Of a stretch of 44,988 nucleotides of DNA, positions 1,843 through 31,865 are shown in pieces. A program made the translations under genes and the position numbers. Under the pieces are notes generated by a model, which ran no database searches, was not told the DNA's origin, and saw only the letters and a list, made by a program, of their open reading frames with translations. This DNA comes from an uncultured Methanosarcinales archaeon (lineage in GTDB: Archaea > Nanobdellota > Nanobdellia > Woesearchaeales > ARS49), in the NCBI GenBank assembly GCA_964640255.1, contig CAZXEZ010000001.1:1-44988 (forward strand), in the 5' to 3' direction. The first letter of the stretch is position 1. Each line of letters opens with the position of its first letter.

Positions 1843-2681
1843 TTTACCGCATTCAAAGCCTTAATAGCAACCTCTAATTGTTTTAATGAAGGTTCTTTTG
1901 TAGTAAGTTTTTGTGTCCAGATACCTGGAGCTATTATGATTTTAATTATCTTGTTATCTTTAAATCTATACGCAATCTTTACAGCTTCATAGCCAATGCC
2001 TGCAATCAAAGGGATGAACAAAATCCTCAATGGGATGTTGACATACCATCTAGGGTCTTTGATCAATGAGAAGAGCAAGATACTTACAACAATTACAAAG
2101 ACTAACAAGCTTGTACCGCATCTGATATGTTCCTTGGGATATTTCTTCGCATTCTTAGGAGTTAACTTAACACCTGCTTCATAGCAATTGACTGACTTAT
2201 GCTCTGCGCCATGATACCTGAATATCTCTTTCATGTCTGCCATACAACCGATCATAATCAGGTATAAGAAGAAAATGATGATTCTGAAAACACCGTCTAT
2301 CAAGTTAAACAGGAAATTAGTCTGCTTTATGAATAGTTTTGCCAGATAATAAGGAGCAATAATAAAAATTAAAATCGTTGCAATAGTTGCAATGAGAAAA
2401 GTGACGCCAAGCTCTTTTTTAGAGATCTGTTCTTCTTTTTTATCTGTCTGCTGATTAGCAGACCAAGTCAAGGCTTTCATGCCCAAGACCATCATCTCAA
2501 TAAGGTTGACAAAACCTCTGACAATAGGAATCGTCAATATCCTGTATTTTTTTGAGAGGGCCCTGTAGCGCATCCTCTTAGTTATGATCTTACCTTTTTT
2601 TCTCACAGAAACAGCCACTTTTGAGTCTGACTTCATCATCACGCCTTCAATCACTGCCTGACCGCCTATATGTTTTTTCAT
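1839..2681 (-). CDS. DUF1385 (YqhQ-like) membrane protein
   Basis: GGQAVIEGVMMK near the N-terminus and the YHGAEHK motif, plus several TM helices. Start set at MKKHIGGQ. Confidence 0.8.
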   Translation of the reverse strand: MKKHIGGQAVIEGVMMKSDSKVAVSVRKKGKIITKRMRYRALSKKYRILTIPIVRGFVNLIEMMVLGMKALTWSANQQTDKKEEQISKKELGVTFLIATIATILIFIIAPYYLAKLFIKQTNFLFNLIDGVFRIIIFFLYLIMIGCMADMKEIFRYHGAEHKSVNCYEAGVKLTPKNAKKYPKEHIRCGTSLLVFVIVVSILLFSLIKDPRWYVNIPLRILFIPLIAGIGYEAVKIAYRFKDNKIIKIIIAPGIWTQKLTTKEPSLKQLEVAIKALNAVK

Positions 2682-9005: not shown

Positions 9006-9060
9006 CATGAAACGAGTTGATTGTATTCATTGTGGATAAACTGAATTCTTATTTGATTAG
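9006..9060 (+). repeat. about 55-nt box, copy 1 (core TGATTGTATTCATTGT)
   Basis: Imperfect repeat of 9175..9229. Lies just downstream of the TTTATAAA box at 8974..8981. Confidence 0.6.
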
Positions 9061-9174
9061 TTCCAACTCTAAACTTTACAAAATTTTAGAAGTCAAAGAT
9101 GTGAGACGCAAGGTCTCACGAGCGAGCTCGATTATTCTGCAGATGGTTCGCAACATAGCAAATATGTGCGAATT

Positions 9175-9229
9175 TATGATGCGAAGTGATTGTATTCATT
9201 GTTAGTAGATGTAATTCTAATATTTTTTA
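9175..9229 (+). repeat. about 55-nt box, copy 2
   Basis: Same core TGATTGTATTCATTGT. Ends 1 nt before the truncated tRNA-His-like gene. Confidence 0.6.
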
Positions 9230-9230
9230 T

Positions 9231-9294
9231 GGCGGCAGTGGCGTAATGGCAGCGTACAGGACTGTGGCTCCTGTGGAGCGGGTTCGATTCCCAC
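9231..9294 (+). pseudogene. tRNA-His(GUG)-like gene lacking the 3' acceptor strand
   Basis: Has G-1, acceptor 5' strand GCGGCAG, D arm, a perfect anticodon stem CAGGA/TCCTG with loop CTGTGGC, and a TTCGATT T-loop. One mismatch in the T stem. No complement to the acceptor strand follows. Confidence 0.6.
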
Positions 9295-9413
9295 CTAACT
9301 TTGGAAAAGTTAGGATCAAAGGCGCTCCTTGTTCGAACTCAAGAAGCAACCTATATGATGTTTGCTCACGCAAACATGTATTTTACTCTTCTTTCGTTCT
9401 CACAATGTCACGC
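9295..9413 (+). repeat. 119-nt structured repeat, copy A
   Basis: Starts with hairpin CTAACTTT-GGA-AAAGTTAG and ends CACAATGTCACGC. Aligns along its full length with copies B and C. Confidence 0.8.
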
Positions 9414-9422
9414 AGTGACTAT

Positions 9423-9494
9423 GGCGGTAATGGTGTATTGGCAGCATATAAGACTGTGGATCTTATGGTGCGGGTTCGATTCCCGCTTGCCGCC
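9423..9494 (+). tRNA. tRNA-His (anticodon GUG) with encoded G-1
   Basis: Cloverleaf folded by hand. G-1 pairs with C73. Acceptor GCGGTAA/TTGCCGC, D stem GTGT/GCAT, anticodon stem TAAGA/TCTTA with loop CTGTGGA, T arm GCGGG-TTCGATT-CCCGC. No encoded CCA. Confidence 0.9.
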
Positions 9495-9613
9495 CTAACT
9501 TTAGAAAAGTTAGGATCAAAAGGCGCTCTTTGTTCAGGCTCCAGAAGCAATCCATCAGATGTTTTCTTCGAAAACATGGACTCAACTCTTCTCTCGCCTT
9601 CACAATGTCGCGC
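9495..9613 (+). repeat. 119-nt structured repeat, copy B
   Basis: Begins immediately after the tRNA-His discriminator base. Same architecture as copies A and C. Confidence 0.8.
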
Positions 9614-9626
9614 AAACGGTTCCGCC

Positions 9627-9658
9627 CTAACTTTAGAAAATGGAGAATCAAAGGGCGG
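9627..9658 (+). repeat. partial, degenerate 5' part of the 119-nt repeat
   Basis: CTAACTTTAGAAAATGGAGAATCAAAGGGCGG compared with CTAACTTTAGAAAAGTTAGGATCAAAAGGCGC. Preceded by GGTTCCGCC, which resembles a tRNA 3' remnant. Confidence 0.5.
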
Positions 9659-9673
9659 TATTTCTCAAAAAGA

Positions 9674-9681
9674 TTTATATA
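9674..9681 (+). promoter_or_regulatory. TATA box TTTATATA upstream of hisS
   Basis: 26 nt upstream of the ATG at 9707. An AGGTGA Shine-Dalgarno sequence lies at 9695..9700. Confidence 0.45.
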
Positions 9682-9706
9682 TACTAATGAATGCAGGTGA
9701 ATTAAA

Positions 9707-10966
9707 ATGAAATATCAAGCACCTAAAGGAATGGAAGATTATTATCCAGAAGAAGAAGCAGTAAAAAACAAGATCTTTCAGGTATTCAGGGATGTGGCTG
9801 TTAGATACGGCTTTCAGGAAGTCAGCAACCCTGCGATGGAGTCTTTCAAGCTATTGTCTGCTAAATCCGGGGAAGAGATAAAACAACAGATATTCATGAT
9901 AGAGAAAAGAGGCTCTGAAGACCTGGGCCTGAGATTTGACTTGACAGTGCCAATAACAAGATTATTCGTCACAAAACAGAGAGAGCTCACAAAACCAGTG
10001 AAATGGTTCTCAATCGGAAAGATGTGGAGGTATGAAGCTCCGCAAAAAGGGAGATTAAGAGAGTTTAGCCAATTAAGTATAGAGATGTTTGGCTCTGACA
10101 AGCCAGAGGCAGATGCTGAATTGCTTAATATGATAATCGACATAATGAAAGGGCTAGGTCTTACTGACAAAGATTTCTTTATCAAGATGAATAACAGGAA
10201 ATTACTAGAAGGAATACTTCTTACTGCAATCAAAAAAGAGCAGTTAGAGGCTGTCACACGTGTTATTGACAAGTCCAAGAAGCTGACAGATGCTGAATTT
10301 GAGCAGGAATTGCTTGATCTGGGCCTGGATAACTTTAAAATCGAGAGAATAAGGCATGCAATACAATTCAACGGCAATCCAAGCAAGGTCTTGAAAGAAA
10401 TCAGAGAGCATTTTGCAGACATTCCAGAGGAAACAAAAGCAGGAATAACTGAGATGGAGAACATCTGCAAACTAGTTGATGAAAGATACATCGTGCTAGA
10501 CCTGTCTGTTGCTAGAGGTTTGGCATATTATACAGGAACAGTGTTTGAGGTGTTTGACAAGCAAGAGAAGTTCAGGAGCATGGCAGGCGGCGGAAGATAT
10601 GACAACATGGTAAAATTATTCGGTGGAGAGAACTGCCCTGCAACAGGCTTTGCAATAGGGGAAGCTGTGACAACACTTGTTTTGCAGGACTGCAATAAAT
10701 TGCCAAAACCAGAACTGGGGCCTGAATATTTTGTTGCTGTTGTGAGCGAAGATGTAAAAGAAGATGCAATAAAATTAGCACAGAAACTAAGGAAGAAATA
10801 TAGAGTAGATATTGACTTGATGGGCAGGAAACTGAAGAAACAGTTTGAGTATGCCAATAGTATTGGTGCAAAAAAAGTGATTGTTGTGGGTCCTGATGAA
10901 GTCAAGGCAAAAGAATTCACTGTAAAAGACATGAAGACAGGGAAGGAAGAGAAAAAGAAGTTCTAG
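9707..10966 (+). CDS. hisS: histidine--tRNA ligase
   Basis: N-terminal APKGMEDYYP, class II motif 2 WRYEAPQKGRLREFSQ and GGGRYD motif 3 region, plus a C-terminal anticodon-binding domain. Confidence 0.95.
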   Translation: MKYQAPKGMEDYYPEEEAVKNKIFQVFRDVAVRYGFQEVSNPAMESFKLLSAKSGEEIKQQIFMIEKRGSEDLGLRFDLTVPITRLFVTKQRELTKPVKWFSIGKMWRYEAPQKGRLREFSQLSIEMFGSDKPEADAELLNMIIDIMKGLGLTDKDFFIKMNNRKLLEGILLTAIKKEQLEAVTRVIDKSKKLTDAEFEQELLDLGLDNFKIERIRHAIQFNGNPSKVLKEIREHFADIPEETKAGITEMENICKLVDERYIVLDLSVARGLAYYTGTVFEVFDKQEKFRSMAGGGRYDNMVKLFGGENCPATGFAIGEAVTTLVLQDCNKLPKPELGPEYFVAVVSEDVKEDAIKLAQKLRKKYRVDIDLMGRKLKKQFEYANSIGAKKVIVVGPDEVKAKEFTVKDMKTGKEEKKKF

Positions 10967-11009: not shown

Positions 11010-11378
11010 ATGGATGGTGGTACAGGAACTGGCAGTACAGAAGATAAACTAGCTGTAGTCACACTTAGAGAATATATTTTACATGGCGAAGAATTATGCA
11101 GATTGCCAGATAGAGGACTACATCAAAATCAGAATCCTATTTTTTTCAGGGCAGATTTTTTAGAAGGCAAACTAGAGCGGTATGAAGGAACATGGGTAGC
11201 GTATCAAAAAGGAATTCTTTGCGGACAGAGCGCAGATGGAAAGAAATTGCGCCATGAAGCTACTTGTCATTACGGCGGTTCAGGACTGACAGTATTCCCT
11301 GTGCCTGCCACAAAGGGCGCTACGATAGATGACATCAATGCAAAAATAGATGAAGCTGTTGAAAAAGCATTACAATAA
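11010..11378 (+). CDS. hypothetical protein (possibly DUF5678-like)
   Basis: 122-aa ORF with a TTAAATA box about 25 nt upstream. YEGTWVAYQKGILCG resembles the y.GkWVAi..g.vv motif, but only weakly. Confidence 0.45.
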   Translation: MDGGTGTGSTEDKLAVVTLREYILHGEELCRLPDRGLHQNQNPIFFRADFLEGKLERYEGTWVAYQKGILCGQSADGKKLRHEATCHYGGSGLTVFPVPATKGATIDDINAKIDEAVEKALQ

Positions 11379-11411
11379 GTTTTTAAAACAAATATACTTC
11401 TTTGAGAAAAC

Positions 11412-12284
11412 ATGTGGGATATACTTGCGAGAACATCATTCATAGCAATACTTGCAAGGTATGGCCAGGATGGGATGACGCTACAGGAAATCATAGAAAA
11501 GGACCAAGAGATATTTCATTTTGATATGGAACATGTTTTTTCTGAAAAAGAGCCATCCTTGGTATTTCCTAGTTGTGTTGTAAAAAAAGTAGAAAAATAC
11601 TTTCTAAAGCCAGGAACTGCAGGGAGAGAATGGGCAGAGAGAACAATACAAAACGCATTAGAAGGCAAAGTTGCAGATAGCTATGATCCAAGAGTGATTG
11701 TCGGTGATTGGGGAGAATCAATAGTGAGAAATGCTTTTGATTTGAGAGAGACAGAAGACGATGATATGCCTGATCTAGTATCAAAAGATGGTTCTCTTTA
11801 TGTTGAGGTAAAGACAACTGCATTCAATAATGGAGGAGTCATAAAAGGGAGGCAGTTGACAAGGTTTGACGAAATAATCAATACAAGAAGATTTTATGCT
11901 TTTGTTTTTCATTCCCTAACAGGAAACATGGGTAGAACATACCCAAATGAGGAAAGATTGTATGCTGCACTTTCCCTAAAATCAATTTATCTGCTGCCGT
12001 TCAGTATTGTAGAAGCACATTTTCATAACACCAAGAAAAAACCATATCCTGACGGAGATGTGTTTGTGCAGTTAAATGAAAAACAGGCAGAACACATCTT
12101 TTCAGGAGACTATGGAATCTGGAAAGTAAGCCTTAATCTCTCTCCAACAGCATACTCTAGAAAAGAACTTCATGAACGCGTAACTCTTGTGACAAGAAAT
12201 GCCATGCTAGAAGACAGAATCACAAAAGCATTCAAGCCTGAGGTGATTGAGGCTGCCTGCAGATCTCCTGCAGATGAGGAATGA
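11412..12284 (+). CDS. wHTH plus PD-(D/E)XK nuclease-fold protein
   Basis: N-terminal ILARYGQDGMTLQEII looks winged-helix-like. GDWGESIV...MPDLVSKDGSLYVEVKT fits the E...PD...(D/E)xK catalytic pattern. Confidence 0.55.
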   Translation: MWDILARTSFIAILARYGQDGMTLQEIIEKDQEIFHFDMEHVFSEKEPSLVFPSCVVKKVEKYFLKPGTAGREWAERTIQNALEGKVADSYDPRVIVGDWGESIVRNAFDLRETEDDDMPDLVSKDGSLYVEVKTTAFNNGGVIKGRQLTRFDEIINTRRFYAFVFHSLTGNMGRTYPNEERLYAALSLKSIYLLPFSIVEAHFHNTKKKPYPDGDVFVQLNEKQAEHIFSGDYGIWKVSLNLSPTAYSRKELHERVTLVTRNAMLEDRITKAFKPEVIEAACRSPADEE

Positions 12285-22382: not shown

Positions 22383-22823
22383 GTGAAATTAGGGGAGTGG
22401 TATAGAGAAAAGTGTGAGAGCATGGTAATCTTATTTGATCGGTTTAATTTATCGTCGGACATCTTTGAAATAATCTTTTCTACTGAGCAGCAGAAGATAG
22501 TCGCAAAAGAACTGATCAAATTTACCATCGAGAATACTGGAGAGATTACCAAGACACAGATGAGTTTTTTTGCAACGCAATTACATGATGGCAAGTACGA
22601 ATGTGTCTTAGATTCCGGAGTGCACAAGGGCAAGAAGGCAAAACTGAGCTACAACAAAAGACAATTCTACGACAGGATATTAACGCCGATGAAATCAATG
22701 GGCTTGATTGATTATGATCTTTACAAGAAAACGTACAAGATTTCTGATAAATTCTCAAATGACATGATGAAGATAGGCCTGATGTGGAAAGCTGAGTTAA
22801 GGAAGTTTGGTGTTAAGATATAA
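22383..22823 (+). CDS. hypothetical protein, probable winged-helix C-terminus
   Basis: 146 aa with GTG start. Its last 100 nt are duplicated at 23572..23671. Confidence 0.55.
   Translation: MKLGEWYREKCESMVILFDRFNLSSDIFEIIFSTEQQKIVAKELIKFTIENTGEITKTQMSFFATQLHDGKYECVLDSGVHKGKKAKLSYNKRQFYDRILTPMKSMGLIDYDLYKKTYKISDKFSNDMMKIGLMWKAELRKFGVKI
22720..22819 (+). repeat. 100-nt direct repeat, copy 1 (3' end of the 146-aa gene)
   Basis: 98/100 identical to 23572..23671. Both mismatches are synonymous third positions. Confidence 0.9.
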
Positions 22824-23571: not shown

Positions 23572-23671
23572 TTTACAAGAAAACATACAAGATTTCTGAT
23601 AAATTCTCAAATGACATGATGAAGATAGGCCTGATGTGGAAAGCTGAGTTAAGGAAGTTTGGGGTTAAGAT
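23572..23671 (+). repeat. 100-nt direct repeat, copy 2 (orphan gene 3' end)
   Basis: Encodes ...YKKTYKISDKFSNDMMKIGLMWKAELRKFGVKI followed by a stop, but has no 5' gene body. Confidence 0.9.
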
Positions 23672-23719
23672 TTAATATATTTCAAAAGGTTTAAATAGTT
23701 TCTTCACTAAGGATATTTT

Positions 23720-24506: not shown

Positions 24507-24584
24507 TTATTTAGTCAAAACTTCTACCTTATCTGTAATCAACAGAGTATGTTCTGCCTGAGAGACCATTCCTTTGTTTTTCTC
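24507..24584 (-). repeat. orphan copy 'a' of the map gene 3' end (78 nt)
   Basis: Aligns with 28425..28499 of the live map gene, from the stop codon inward. Confidence 0.85.
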
Positions 24585-25790: not shown

Positions 25791-26000
25791 CTAAATCTTA
25801 ATCAAAACTTCTACTTTATCTGTAATCAACAGAGTATGTTCTGCCTGTGAGACTATCCCTTTGTTTTTCTCGACTAAAGGAGGGAATTGCTTGATAATAT
25901 TGTTTTTCAGGAGTTCTCTCAATGCAAAATTAGTCTTGCCCAGGCCGAACTTTTTTGAGAGCCATCTTGTTGTGAATGGTAATGTCTTGTAGTTTTCGCC
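25791..26000 (-). pseudogene. orphan copy 'b' of the map gene 3' end (210 nt, 69 codons plus stop)
   Basis: Encodes GENYKTLPFTTRWLSKKFGLGKTNFALRELLKNNIIKQFPPLVEKNKGIVSQAEHTLLITDKVEVLIKI, colinear with the Map C-terminus. There is no gene body upstream. Confidence 0.9.
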
Positions 26001-27388: not shown

Positions 27389-27389
27389 A
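26769..27389 (+). CDS. hypothetical protein
   Basis: 206-aa ORF. The stop abuts map fragment c. Confidence 0.5.
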   Translation: MPMTKTLCGVLHDEADKEEIQQVLDLIDNTNPAKVGLEITNKYAETNHCPEFFDRIHDYARTNGRRIVPLEHQLAHEKYSIVNAVVLVLEDKLSRENLEFLLQYTTIELKKRFALKSSQIRALEENQKTTKHALKLLDSNPTKEEAIKWYEEAETEREKHMLNRILRHNPDLVIIGVKHAEAIKDNLQEYQYICLAKRDAEGIFES

Positions 27390-27439
27390 TTTAGTTATTA
27401 CTTCCACCTTATCTGTAATCAACAGAGTATGTTCTGCCT
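27389..27439 (-). repeat. orphan copy 'c' of the map gene 3' end (about 51 nt)
   Basis: CTTCCACCTTATCTGTAATCAACAGAGTATGTTCTGCCT aligns with the live gene end. Contains a 5-nt diverged patch. Confidence 0.75.
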
Positions 27440-27862
27440 TTACTCCTCGACTAATGACGTTAAGAACTGGATAATCTTTGTTATTTCTTCCTTGTTTTTC
27501 TCATAAAAAGAGATATCAACTGCTTCACCGTAATAATGTAACAGGTTTCTTAAATAACTCATTTCTGAAATAAAATTAGCTTCAAACTCATTATCTGAAT
27601 GCTTTCGGTAAAAATAAGAGATAAGACATTGATGATTCTTTGATTTCAAGCCATGTTTTAGCAATAATGCCACAAGCAATTCCTTGATAATCTCATAATA
27701 ACCCTCAATGATAAAAGAAACATTATCTTGATTAACTTGCTGGATGTCAACAAATTTTCTTCTTTTAATGACTGTATCCAATATGGAACTGATCTTTTCC
27801 TTGTCAGGAGTCACAGTTCTGATAAATTGCCGCCTGCATTCGCCCCAATCCATCAAATTCAT
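27440..27862 (-). CDS. HEPN-domain protein (toxin candidate)
   Basis: 140-aa helical protein. YLRNLLHYYG resembles an R-x(n)-H HEPN motif. 4-nt overlap with the upstream nucleotidyltransferase gene. Confidence 0.55.
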   Translation of the reverse strand: MNLMDWGECRRQFIRTVTPDKEKISSILDTVIKRRKFVDIQQVNQDNVSFIIEGYYEIIKELLVALLLKHGLKSKNHQCLISYFYRKHSDNEFEANFISEMSYLRNLLHYYGEAVDISFYEKNKEEITKIIQFLTSLVEE

Positions 27863-28421: not shown

Positions 28422-29330
28422 TTAAGATTTAGTCAAAACTTCTACCTTATCTGTAATCAATAAAGTGTGCTCTGCCTGAGAGACTATCCCTTTGTTTTTC
28501 TCGACTAAAGGAGGGAATTGCTTGATAATGTTGTTTTTCAGGAGTTCTCTCAATGCAAAATTAGTCTTGCCTAAGCCGAATTTAGAGGATAACCATCTTG
28601 TTGTGAAAGGCAAGGTCTTGTAGTTCTCGCCGACAAACTTAAGTATTTCCCTGGCAAAAGGGCTTCTGACAGGCTTTGGGTTTGTGAGCATGAAGATGTT
28701 AGCTCTCTCTGACTCGTATATCATTCCTGCACCATCAGTTGCAAAAGGCTCGATAGCAATGCACATATTCTCCTCTATTTCAGTGTCATCGCCAGTGTCA
28801 AAATTAGGGATTGTTGGATCTGTGTGGATATCGTAATAATCCAATCCATGGCCGCTTAAATTCTTTATAGGCGAGAAACCATGACTAGAGATAGTCTCTT
28901 GGATGGTCTTTCCAATCTCTCCTAAAGTTGTTCCAATCTGAACAATCTTGATTGCATTATTCAGGGCCTCTCTAGAGGCTTTTACCAAATCAGAATATTT
29001 TCCGCTCAGATCAACTGTAAGAGCATTGTCTCCTATTGCTCCTTCAAAACAGGCACCAACATCCAGGCAGGCAACCTGATCCTCAAACACAATCTTATCG
29101 TCTGGATCTGCACAATAATGCGCAGCAATATGGTCGCAGGAAATCTGTGCAGGAAAAGCAGGTATTGCACCCAAGTCTACAATCTTTTTCTCTATCAAAT
29201 CAGAGACCTCTAGCAGAGTTGCGCCTTTCTTTATTAATCCTCCACCGTATTCAAGGGCCTGCGCTGCAATCTTCCCGGCTTTTTTCCATTTCTCTATGTC
29301 TTCTGGAGTTAACTCTGTTTCTTCTTCCAT
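28422..29330 (-). CDS. map: type 2 (archaeal) methionine aminopeptidase
   Basis: Pita-bread fold motifs (AHYCADPDD, LDVGA, HGL, IAIEPFAT) and the C-terminal winged-helix insert typical of MetAP2-type enzymes. Confidence 0.9.
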   Translation of the reverse strand: MEEETELTPEDIEKWKKAGKIAAQALEYGGGLIKKGATLLEVSDLIEKKIVDLGAIPAFPAQISCDHIAAHYCADPDDKIVFEDQVACLDVGACFEGAIGDNALTVDLSGKYSDLVKASREALNNAIKIVQIGTTLGEIGKTIQETISSHGFSPIKNLSGHGLDYYDIHTDPTIPNFDTGDDTEIEENMCIAIEPFATDGAGMIYESERANIFMLTNPKPVRSPFAREILKFVGENYKTLPFTTRWLSSKFGLGKTNFALRELLKNNIIKQFPPLVEKNKGIVSQAEHTLLITDKVEVLTKS

Positions 29331-30487: not shown

Positions 30488-31639
30488 ATGAACATATCCA
30501 ACATTCTAATGATAGGCTTCTTAATAGCACTCAGCCTGACTATATTGATCTTTAGAAAGAGATTTGTTTTCCAGAGCTTTGGGAAAATATTTTATTTCGG
30601 AATGTACAAGACAAAAGTAGGGCTGAAGCTGATGGACAGATGGTCTAAAAAATACCCAAGAATATTGACGAGGCTGTGCTATCTGTCAATAGTGATTGGA
30701 TTCTTGGGAATGATACTGGTAGTATTTGACCTGATAAAATCAGGATACCAGATATTGACTGGAACAAGCACATTATCAGTCGGACTGGTATTGCCTGTTC
30801 AGGCAAAAGGAGTGTTTTATGTCCCATTTATTTATTGGATAATCGCAATAGCAGTCATCGTTGTCATACACGAGTTTTCACATGGATTGATAGCAAGACT
30901 GCATAAAATAAAAGTAAGGAGCTCTGGAGTTGCATTCTTAGGAATCATTATACCATTAATACCTGCAGCATTTGTAGAGCCAGATGAAAAACAATTAAGA
31001 AAAGCATCCAGGTTCAAGCAATTAAGTGTCTATGCAGCAGGACCATTTGCAAACATTGTCTTTGGATTTCTATTCTTAGGAATATTTGCACTGATACTAA
31101 ACCCATTTGCAGCCTCTTTATACAATTTTGAGGGCGTAAAAGTAAATGATTTTATGGGTGCTGAAAGTCCTGCAGAGATAAGCGGCATGGCAACAGGAGA
31201 GATAATAACAGAGATAAATGATGCTGAGATAAAGAATACAGAGGATTTTCTTAAATCAATAGAAGATGCAGAGCCAGGAGATGTTGCAGAGATAAAGACC
31301 ACAGAAAAAAGTTATTCTGTTTTATTAGAGGAAGATCCAGCTGAGAAAGATGCATTCTTAGGAGTTTGGGTATCAACAGAGAAGACAATGAAAGACAAAA
31401 GTTTATTCTCTTATTTCATAATCTGGGTGACTGACTTGTTCTACTGGTTATTTTTATTGAACTTAGGAGTGGGGTTGTTTAACCTGGTTCCAATCGGGCC
31501 TATTGACGGTGGAAGAATGCTCCAGACAGTGCTTGAAAAAGTGATGCCTAATAAACGTGCAACAAGAGTGTGGCACACTGTGAGTGTTGTTGTGTTGATG
31601 ATTATCGTCAGTAATATTATTTATGCTTTTGTCGCTTAA
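30488..31639 (+). CDS. site-2 protease (M50 family) with PDZ-like insert
   Basis: HEFSHGLIA (HExxH) and NLVPIGPIDGGRM (NxxPxxxxDG). Multiple TM helices. Confidence 0.9.
   Translation: MNISNILMIGFLIALSLTILIFRKRFVFQSFGKIFYFGMYKTKVGLKLMDRWSKKYPRILTRLCYLSIVIGFLGMILVVFDLIKSGYQILTGTSTLSVGLVLPVQAKGVFYVPFIYWIIAIAVIVVIHEFSHGLIARLHKIKVRSSGVAFLGIIIPLIPAAFVEPDEKQLRKASRFKQLSVYAAGPFANIVFGFLFLGIFALILNPFAASLYNFEGVKVNDFMGAESPAEISGMATGEIITEINDAEIKNTEDFLKSIEDAEPGDVAEIKTTEKSYSVLLEEDPAEKDAFLGVWVSTEKTMKDKSLFSYFIIWVTDLFYWLFLLNLGVGLFNLVPIGPIDGGRMLQTVLEKVMPNKRATRVWHTVSVVVLMIIVSNIIYAFVA
31609..31637 (+). repeat. 29-nt direct repeat, copy 1 (last codons of the S2P gene)
   Basis: CAGTAATATTATTTATGCTTTTGTCGCTT, identical to 31764..31792. 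Confidence 0.9.
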
Positions 31640-31758
31640 GCGCGATATTGTGAAGGCGAGAGAAGAGTTGAACCCCTGTTTGCGAAGCAAACAGCTGACA
31701 GAATGCTTCTCGAGCCTGAACAAAGAGCGCCCTTTGATCCTAACTTTTTCAAAGTTAG
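31640..31758 (-). repeat. 119-nt structured repeat, copy C
   Basis: The reverse complement aligns end to end with copies A and B. It forms the core of the 126-nt insert 31638..31763. Confidence 0.8.
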
Positions 31759-31763
31759 ATTGA

Positions 31764-31792
31764 CAGTAATATTATTTATGCTTTTGTCGCTT
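31764..31792 (+). repeat. 29-nt direct repeat, copy 2
   Basis: Identical to the S2P gene end. Here it is followed by GA, giving the presumed ancestral TGA stop. Confidence 0.9.
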
Positions 31793-31865
31793 GAGTTCTC
31801 TTTCATAACATTTATATACAAGATGTTTCTATTCCCTAGTAACTTACTAGAGAAAGGTGATTTAA

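Follow-up and report, generated by a model that had tools for sequence, protein, structure and literature searches.

The 44,988-nt stretch of archaeal DNA analyzed here (contig CAZXEZ010000001.1, positions 1 to 44,988, referred to as the window) carries a family of repeats of 118 to 122 nt, here named element E, with three full copies, A, B, and C, and one remnant, D. We propose that E is probably a small, noncoding, nonautonomous mobile DNA element of a Woesearchaeota clade, because it has precise ends at unrelated targets, contains no open reading frame (ORF), lacks inverted termini, and maintains its fold by compensatory changes. Judged by sequence, E is mobile or formerly mobile; a mobile hairpin element accounts for the data better than an RNA gene does, an RNA function being possible. 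No small prokaryotic element of this kind is known to make such a long target duplication. An initial inspection of the window, referred to below as the sequence-only reading, had suggested either a structured RNA or an element resembling a miniature inverted-repeat transposable element (MITE); of this, a mobile element is well supported and the fold is real, but neither a discrete RNA nor a textbook MITE was borne out.

The gene for a site-2 protease offers a direct comparison of loci with and without E. At filled sites (the window, L026, L003, L010, and L018), the gene ends in a segment, X, which is followed by E, a second copy of X, and then the intergenic DNA leading toward Rrf2, whereas at empty sites (L015/L016, L017, L025, and L027) this intergenic DNA starts right behind the stop codon. 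In the window and in L026, X comprises the last 36 nt of the gene, and in L003, L010, and L018 it comprises the last 42 nt, in each case with the stop codon included. The proteases of L015, which is empty, and L018, which is filled, are 94% identical. In the window, the two copies of X align with a local score of 58, compared to a maximum of 25 in 200 shuffles, and gttctctttcataacatttatataca, which stands behind the displaced copy, is what follows the stop codon in the empty loci L015 and L025. The junction at the 3' end of E is constant at this gene, while the other junction is shifted by 6 nt between loci, and the flanks of copy C share lineage-specific changes that are not found in relatives. 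In L018, both copies of X resemble the displaced copy of L003 and L010 and not the gene end of the sister locus L015, which argues for the import of an allele; as far as can be judged from these sequences, filled alleles are thus also spread by homologous recombination. A further feature of L018, at positions 11272 to 11700, is a stretch with the first 10 nt of E (GTGCGATATT) behind the second copy of the protease gene end, followed by a segment of ~390 bp that encodes a 102-residue protein without a Pfam match and then by the normal downstream DNA. This segment may be cargo joined at an E remnant.

The second site at which an insertion can be followed is the tRNA-His gene. Here the duplication begins ~17 nt ahead of the tRNA, ends at tRNA position 65, and has left a pseudo-tRNA, which is recognized by the Rfam tRNA model at positions 9232 to 9302 with 39.6 bits and runs straight into the CTAAC with which copy A begins. 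The two target copies flanking copy A form a 65-nt direct repeat that is 83% identical (Table 1). Copy A and the pseudo-tRNA are missing in the closest relative, L028, whose histidyl-tRNA synthetase (HisRS) is 95% identical to that of the window, and are present in L011 and L020. At six loci (window copy B, L006, L021, L024, L028, and L019), including one from a distant host, E starts exactly behind the discriminator base of tRNA-His, and the junction of copy B, ccgcc/CTAAC, recurs in L006, L021, L024, and L028. It is of note that the pseudo-tRNA (9232 to 9294) is nearly identical to the working tRNA-His of L028 (L028 797 to 869). The intact tRNA-His of the window differs from the latter by many compensatory, AT-enriching changes in its stems and is of the type found in L011 and L024; it may have been imported or converted. 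The stems of tRNA-His are unusually variable across this clade.

Table 1. Element E, its target copies, and the adjoining genes in the window, listed in the order in which they occur
Feature	Positions	Strand	Description
Pseudo-tRNA-His (left target copy of A)	9228-9292	+	Truncated, tRNA positions ~-4 to 65, without 3' acceptor strand
Copy A	9295-9413	+	119 nt; covariance model, 133 bits
Right target copy of A	9420-9484	+	First 61 nt of tRNA-His and 4 upstream nt
tRNA-His (GTG), intact	9424-9494	+	ARAGORN; Rfam, 62.8 bits
Copy B	9495-9613	+	119 nt; covariance model, 138 bits; starts right behind the tRNA-His discriminator base
Scrap between copy B and remnant D	9614-9626	+	13 nt, aaacggttccgcc; resembles the tRNA-His 3' end with an internal deletion
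Remnant D	9627-9663	+	Degenerate 5' hairpin, linker, and first long-hairpin bases of an older copy; rest of long hairpin deleted
HisRS gene	9707-10966		
Site-2 protease gene	30488-31639	+	Copy C begins directly behind its stop codon, on the opposite strand
X, gene-side copy	31604-31639	+	Last 36 nt of the protease gene with stop codon; perfect 29-nt core, 31609-31637
Copy C	31640-31758	-	119 nt; covariance model, 139 bits
X, displaced copy	31759-31794	+	Contiguous with the original downstream intergenic DNA; perfect 29-nt core, 31764-31792

A systematic comparison of the flanks revealed repeats abutting both ends of E, far above the level of shuffled sequences, at 11 of 19 copies, with lengths of ~21 to 76 nt. 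These repeats measure 21 to 34 nt in L001 and 32 to 36 nt in L012, both at an unnamed gene ending in ...KAERKKL, 29 to 36 nt for window copy C and 42 nt in L003, L010, and L018 at the site-2 protease gene, 47 to 57 nt in L004 and 68 nt in L008 at the DNA ligase gene, and 65 to 76 nt for window copy A, L020, and L011 at tRNA-His; the two flanking copies are mostly 80 to 97% identical to each other. E is found at gene ends, 0 to 10 nt past the stop codon, or at or within tRNA-His, and the same precise ends recur at each of at least five unrelated targets. Its orientation is mixed: behind tRNA-His, EndA, and MgtC it is sense, and behind the protease, the ligase, and another gene it is antisense. 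The bases to the left of E are variable (cgc, ctg, agc, aat, caa, aga, and gcc), and most 3' junctions begin with A. Since the duplication abuts the outer 5' hairpin of E, this hairpin is part of the mobile unit.

Arrays and remnants of E were also observed. Tandem arrays of the form E-X-E-X are present in L012 and L008, and the arrangement of copy B, a 13-nt scrap, and remnant D in the window, which is shared by L028 and L021, looks like a decayed tandem pair of units consisting of the tRNA 3' end and E. Counterparts of the scrap are aagcggttccgcc in L028 and agatggttctgcc in L021, each with an E remnant behind it, and the scrap would in this case be derived from the 3' end of tRNA-His. Remnants that have kept the 5' hairpin and the linker and lost the long hairpin are window D, which is 83% identical to the first 42 nt of copy B with its flank, and, in the corresponding position of L028, a 25-nt remnant whose hairpin is intact; in L012 and L018, only the last 10 to 17 nt of E are left. 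Finally, in L019 (positions 1765 to 2060), the tRNA-His-E unit is joined to the protease gene, an inversion relative to L018 and L021, with a protease protein that is the same as that in L018 and a hybrid E with the L021 and L018 copies as its parents. By sequence comparison, this inversion is the product of recombination between inverted E copies, which lie 22 kb apart in the window. The inversion is seen at the population level, as the same protease stands beside E-tRNA-His (reverse complement) in one sample and beside Rrf2 in another.

Three copies of 119 nt each had been reported in the window by the sequence-only reading, and on reading the window all three were found on the strands and at the positions it had given; the partial fourth copy it had placed at 9627 to 9658 does start at 9627, but the remnant extends to 9663. 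Copies B and C are 88% identical across 119 nt, and copy A is 78 to 80% identical to either. A covariance model applied to every position with filters off detected no further copies in the window beyond A, B, C, and D. Such a model had been suggested as a check for scans of the genome, the metagenome, and Rfam; in the window it returned only the known copies, and Rfam gave no family for E: with Rfam 15 at the gathering threshold, only tRNA matches were obtained in the window, and at E-values of up to 10 on both strands, nothing credible covered E, either in the window copies or in the variant from L002 described below. The earlier statements that E has no coding potential, lacks terminal inverted repeats, and belongs to no known RNA family were correct. 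The wider family consists of 20 full-length copies and additional remnants at 16 loci from Woesearchaeota metagenome-assembled genomes (MAGs) and metagenomes, and all 20 full copies score between 120 and 141 bits with model R1. These copies were collected by pattern scans (AAAGTTAGGATCAAAN{0,2}GGCGC) and then by walking orthologous protease and HisRS loci. Pattern matches came from Woesearchaeota MAGs, one MAG labeled Methanosarcinales, and eight metagenome contigs, and 2 of 10 metagenome pattern matches (L009 and L013) were discarded as chance matches within GC-rich DNA. Overall identity among copies is 78 to 92%, with no near-identical pair. E is 82 to 92% identical across hosts whose HisRS N termini share just 30% identity, which fits either horizontal spread or strong constraint. 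We found no earlier description of such an element in the literature searched on Woesearchaeota and DPANN archaea.

A variant of 243 nt is present in L002 (positions 2379 to 2621, minus strand) and shares the ends and closing helices of E but has three additional hairpins inside. It is placed between EndA and the gene that follows, in the sense direction, and the CTAAC of E provides the stop codon of EndA; the genes for FEN1, RNase Z, a histone, and Hjc are in its neighborhood. The Methanosarcinales label of the MAG that contains L002 may be a binning error.

E opens with an 8-bp hairpin of 19 nt, CTAACTTT-NNN-AAAGTTAG, and closes with CACAATRTCRCGC, both of which had been recognized in the sequence-only reading and are present in A, B, and C. 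Behind the hairpin lies a conserved linker, GGATCAAARG, which is followed by an imperfect palindrome of ~95 nt that forms one long interrupted hairpin. In the minimum-energy folds, which are concordant among all three window copies, this hairpin is built from GCGC/GCGC as the outer helix, TTGT/ACAA, AGGC/GCCT, GAGAAG/CTTCTC, and an apical 8-bp stem, and the two 2x2 internal loops between its helices are invariant, reading TC/TC on the tRNA-sense strand and GA/GA (tandem) on the other strand. Across the 20 copies, 96% of the cells are paired and 13 of the 34 pairs are changed in both partners; covariation scores 0.188 in the alignment and 0.075 in shuffles, none of 500 of which reached the observed value, and in controls with slid alignments pairing collapses to 38 to 54%. 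The covariation that had been noticed in the apical hairpin and in the AAGAAG/CTTCTT versus GAGAAG/CTTCTC helix is thus borne out by the larger alignment. The same cannot be said of an outer helix, AAGGCG/CGCCTT, that had been proposed with them: it is without covariation, 495 of 500 shuffles reach its paired percentage, and it competes with the supported AGGC/GCCT helix, in which the partner of the 3' CGCC(T) is the AGGC in alignment columns 42 to 45.

On this outer helix, the sequence-only reading had built an argument for structure at the RNA level, in which copy A retains pairing only through G-U pairs and hence only on the tRNA-sense strand. This argument falls because copy A has GAAC/GTTC in place of AGGC/GCCT, a fully compensatory swap that requires no G-U rescue. 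Moreover, a census of 680 cells in the 20 copies yielded 651 Watson-Crick pairs, 2 G-U pairs on the tRNA-sense strand, 11 A-C combinations, which correspond to G-U on the opposite strand, and 16 other combinations. The predicted folding energy is -38 to -43 kcal/mol (z of about -5) for the opposite strand and -30 to -37 kcal/mol for the tRNA-sense strand. Since both the wobble census and the folding energy favor the opposite strand, this strand is more likely to be the one that folds, if only one of them does. An RNA explains the near lack of wobble pairs no better than a DNA hairpin or a strand-neutral constraint does. On inspection, none of three known RNA classes accommodated the fold: the would-be pseudouridylation pocket of an H/ACA RNA is one-sided, motifs resembling C/D boxes vary between copies, and the G-A pairs belong to symmetric 2x2 loops, which lack the 3-nt bulge that a K-turn has.

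It is nevertheless conceivable, but in our view unlikely, that E is a functional RNA kept by its hosts, either as a stabilizing or terminating hairpin in 3' untranslated regions (UTRs) or as a small RNA, with its spread being secondary. Compensatory changes preserve the fold also among same-site copies of different genomes, the invariant loops form tandem G-A pairs in the sense strand of the protease, the ligase, and other upstream genes, and it is this strand that folds better. In addition, the L002 variant retains the closing helices while adding hairpins, and the sequence of E is conserved beyond that of host proteins. Against this account, close relatives are without E at the same sites, its orientation to the neighboring gene is not uniform, and no Rfam family matches it. 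Wobble pairs make up 13 of 680 cells, unlike in most RNA families, and a conserved structure is also expected if only foldable copies move.

We favor the reading of E as a mobile hairpin element and propose the following course of events. An enzyme encoded elsewhere would nick the two target strands tens of bases apart, E would be joined between the nicks, and filling of the gaps would produce the target duplication. The survivors would be those insertions whose duplication restores the 3' end of a gene, and E would be found at gene ends because, where intergenic space is almost nil, only insertions that rebuild the gene end survive. The fold would be kept because a folded single strand, more likely the complement of tRNA-His, is the substrate for mobilization; in addition, E may serve the gene ahead of it as a 3' UTR hairpin. 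E would be removed precisely if the flanking copies of X recombined, which could account for its patchy distribution, and homologous recombination between strains would spread filled alleles.

Several observations weigh against E being a mobile element of this kind. No gene for a transposase, reverse transcriptase, integrase, or Cas1 was found in the window or among the called genes of the walked loci, and a Pfam search for a partner gene among 30 window proteins and the neighbors of E at other loci returned only housekeeping genes. The one exception is an rve-type insertion sequence in L025, which is unrelated and whose ends do not resemble E, so that its transposase was rejected as a partner. 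The termini of E are not inverted repeats, and the usual logic of DDE cut-and-paste transposition therefore does not apply. Copies within the window are only 78 to 88% identical and a near-identical pair is lacking altogether, so that the copies are old and recent activity is not indicated. Sharing a site does not make copies from different genomes more similar than copies from different sites are; hence, gene conversion or selection in place on fold or function must also act. At 8 of 19 copies, including those directly behind tRNA-His, EndA (L002), and MgtC (L005), no flanking repeat was detectable, and the 36- and 42-nt duplications at the protease gene could reflect two insertions or a single one followed by a 6-nt deletion. 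Lastly, long copies of gene 3' ends also bracket other inserts in the window, for which reason the long duplications may not be specific to E and may reflect an integration route common to the lineage.

This last point leads to a broader alternative, to which we assign a small chance, namely, that E is the footprint of an as-yet-undescribed archaeal insertion pathway that inserts defined segments derived from DNA or RNA immediately behind stop codons and at tRNA-His, with duplication of tens to hundreds of target bases. Under this reading, this pathway would also have produced the other inserts of the window, with their 52- to 203-nt copies of gene 3' ends. In its strongest form, the pathway would make E an archaeal counterpart of eukaryotic short interspersed nuclear elements (SINEs), a retroposon: RNase Z would free its RNA from the precursor of tRNA-His, and the RNA would be copied into staggered nicks.

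Taken by itself, such a retroposed small RNA, with E being transcribed behind tRNA-His, RNase Z setting its 5' end, and insertion occurring by target-primed reverse transcription, has a slim chance of being correct. It would accommodate the start of E exactly after the tRNA-His discriminator at six loci, the precise ends without terminal inverted repeats, and duplications that vary between 21 and 76 nt. It would likewise accommodate the constant 3' junction at the protease site with a 6-nt difference at the other junction, the A with which most 3' junctions start, and the remnants in L012 and L018 that consist of only the last 10 to 17 nt. Yet E ends in GCGC and has no A-rich or other 3' tail, the Pfam lists of all loci examined contain no RVT-family match that would point to a partner reverse transcriptase, and the remnants in the window (D) and in L028 are truncated at the other end. 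Furthermore, the wobble bias favors the strand opposite to the proposed RNA, L020 has copy A and yet no E behind its tRNA-His, and we know of no established SINE-like retroposon in archaea. Least probable among the accounts that we weighed is a passive role as cargo or recombination site, in which circles of E and a gene end integrate by a single, Campbell-type crossover or a site-specific recombinase acts at the hairpin: flanking copies that are usually only 80 to 97% identical, the imported L018 allele, the other window inserts with their 52- to 203-nt gene-end copies, and the recombination of E copies with each other in L019 are in its favor, but it gives no account of one E with precise ends at five or more unrelated targets, the lineage-specific changes common to the flanks of copy C fit duplication in place, and no recombinase gene is linked to E.

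Among known elements, E is closest to MITEs and the small palindromic repeats of bacteria (the 127-bp ERIC/IRU elements, Correia, RUP, and REP/BIME), with which it shares a size of ~120 nt, noncoding and dispersed copies in low to moderate number, an imperfect palindrome that is able to fold, a location between genes near gene ends, presence/absence polymorphism, use as a substrate for rearrangements, and target duplication. The family in fact has the small size (118 to 122 nt), the multiple noncoding copies (20), and the empty and filled sites expected of MITEs. However, it has neither terminal inverted repeats of at least 10 to 15 bp, as the 5' CTAACTTT... and the 3' ...TCGCGC are not complementary, nor a short duplication of fixed length; target duplications of MITEs measure 2 to 10 bp (PMC11602168), and those of E measure 21, 29 to 36, 42, 47 to 57, 68, 72, and 76 nt, depending on the site. 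E differs from MITEs also in being asymmetric, with an extra 28-nt hairpin and linker at one end, such that its inverted arms (GCGC...GAGAAG and CTTCTC...GCGC) start 28 nt inside the 5' end. Unlike for MITEs and small palindromic repeats, no parent insertion sequence is known for E, and its host is a DPANN archaeon. An autonomous element with the ends of E was not found in ~430 kb of loci or in viral, phage, and plasmid collections; three patterns retrieved no relatives of E from IMG/VR, blastn retrieved none from phage and plasmid collections, and a viral or plasmid origin was accordingly set aside.

Long and variable direct repeats, as seen at E, have been reported for only two insertion sequences that we could find, IS1549 and IS1634, with lengths of 8 to 514 bp and an unexplained mechanism, and the IS1634 family is described as diverse in archaea (PMC2266710). 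Unlike E, these elements are 1.5 to 2 kb in length, have terminal inverted repeats, and carry a gene for a DDE transposase; most members of the IS1634 family make duplications of 5 to 6 bp, and no gene of the IS1634 type was seen near E. Casposons, which occur in archaea, target tRNA genes and the aEF-2 gene at their 3' ends and form tandem arrays separated only by the duplicated target; they have terminal inverted repeats and a fixed duplication of 14 to 15 bp (PMC9939771) and carry cas1 and polB genes. E resembles them only in its preference for the 3' ends of tRNAs and genes and in its tandem arrays. A casposon or Cas1 product was rejected, as E is without inverted termini, its duplication varies about fourfold, and neither cas1 nor polB is present in the loci examined. 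CRISPR spacer integration duplicates a whole repeat of ~30 nt.

With eukaryotic SINEs, E has in common precise ends without inverted repeats, variable duplications, truncated copies, and a link between a source copy and a tRNA gene; it is unlike them in the absence of a 3' tail, in its prokaryotic host, and in a wobble bias toward the other strand. Elements derived from IS200/IS605 (PATEs) and the attC sites of integrons resemble E in lacking terminal inverted repeats and function via folded single-stranded hairpins with conserved unpaired bases, but neither of them makes target duplications. IS200/IS605 elements insert 3' of a conserved tetra- or pentanucleotide; an element of this type was rejected given the long duplications at E and the lack of any such sequence on its left flank. 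The attC sites of one chromosome, such as the ~120-nt repeats of Vibrio cholerae, can be highly alike. In E, CTAAC and GTTAG stand 9 nt apart and only in the small hairpin, so that the long palindrome lies outside them, unlike in attC sites, where it is bracketed by the core sites (RYYYAAC...GTTRRRY), and this reading was dropped; the loci examined contained neither a cassette array nor an integrase. Targeting by a diversity-generating retroelement was rejected as well, as a tRNA is among the targets, the differences between flanks are not specific to adenines (in L003, a/c, t/a, t/a, t/c, and a/t), and no reverse transcriptase was seen in the loci examined.

Mobile elements of DPANN archaea are barely described, and the E family provides an alignable case with both empty and filled sites. 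Duplications of 21 to 76 nt without terminal inverted repeats do not fit standard transposase models, and there is a minority chance that E marks an undescribed archaeal mechanism of insertion; being small, abundant, and easily recognized, E could make the mechanism behind long duplications testable. Its effects on these tiny genomes include the making of a pseudo-tRNA-His, the separation of the working tRNA-His from its upstream DNA, the appending of hairpins to mRNAs, and an inversion of ~22 kb. The E repeat region also misleads annotation: both an ARAGORN call of tRNA-Ser(gga) at 9266 to 9352 and a call of a 174-codon ORF at 9186 to 9710 are artifacts that span the pseudo-tRNA and the repeats.

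The window itself is an ordinary stretch of Woesearchaeota chromosome, with genes for PyrBI, HisRS, dCTP deaminase, a serpin, a DEAD helicase, FtsZ, MetAP, the site-2 protease, Rrf2, and TauE, and its closest protein matches are labeled Woesearchaeota. Two further sites with inserts were noticed in it. The 3' end of the MetAP gene (28422 to 29330, minus strand) is present in four direct copies, at 24509 to 24584, 25796 to 26000, 27389 to 27464, and 28427 to 28631, which are 52 to 203 nt in length and 70 to 92% identical and each end within ~2 nt of the stop codon. The three extra copies are spaced 1.0 to 1.6 kb apart, with small ORFs between them, and the arrangement looks like a series of insertions at one gene end, each with a duplication of its target; no recombinase gene and no ends resembling those of E were found in this region. 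Elsewhere, a 104-nt direct repeat that is 97% identical (22720 to 22823 and 23572 to 23675) and represents the 3' end of a 146-codon gene (22383 to 22823) brackets a 748-bp insert with two small ORFs, which begins where the stop codon ends (taaATG). The 104-nt sequence is single in L015 and L025, which are without the insert; the insert has the architecture of the E insertions, except that its cargo is coding.

Two other explanations for the repeats around tRNA-His were considered and rejected. A split or intron-containing tRNA-His is contradicted by the lack of a 3' acceptor strand for the pseudo-tRNA behind copy A, and control of HisRS through a leader of the T-box type is contradicted by the position of the TATA-like box of HisRS (aaagatttatatata) downstream of the repeats and by the presence of E at unrelated genes. 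Upstream of tRNA-His, we noted two mini-ORFs, at 9007 to 9039 (MKRVDCIHCG*) and 9176 to 9205 (MMRSDCIHC*), with a common 15-nt core (gattgtattcattgt), and between them a perfect hairpin, gtgagac-gcaag-gtctcac, at approximately 9101 to 9119. The pair of mini-ORFs is kept in L020, L021, and L028, and L024 retains the hairpin and the second mini-ORF.

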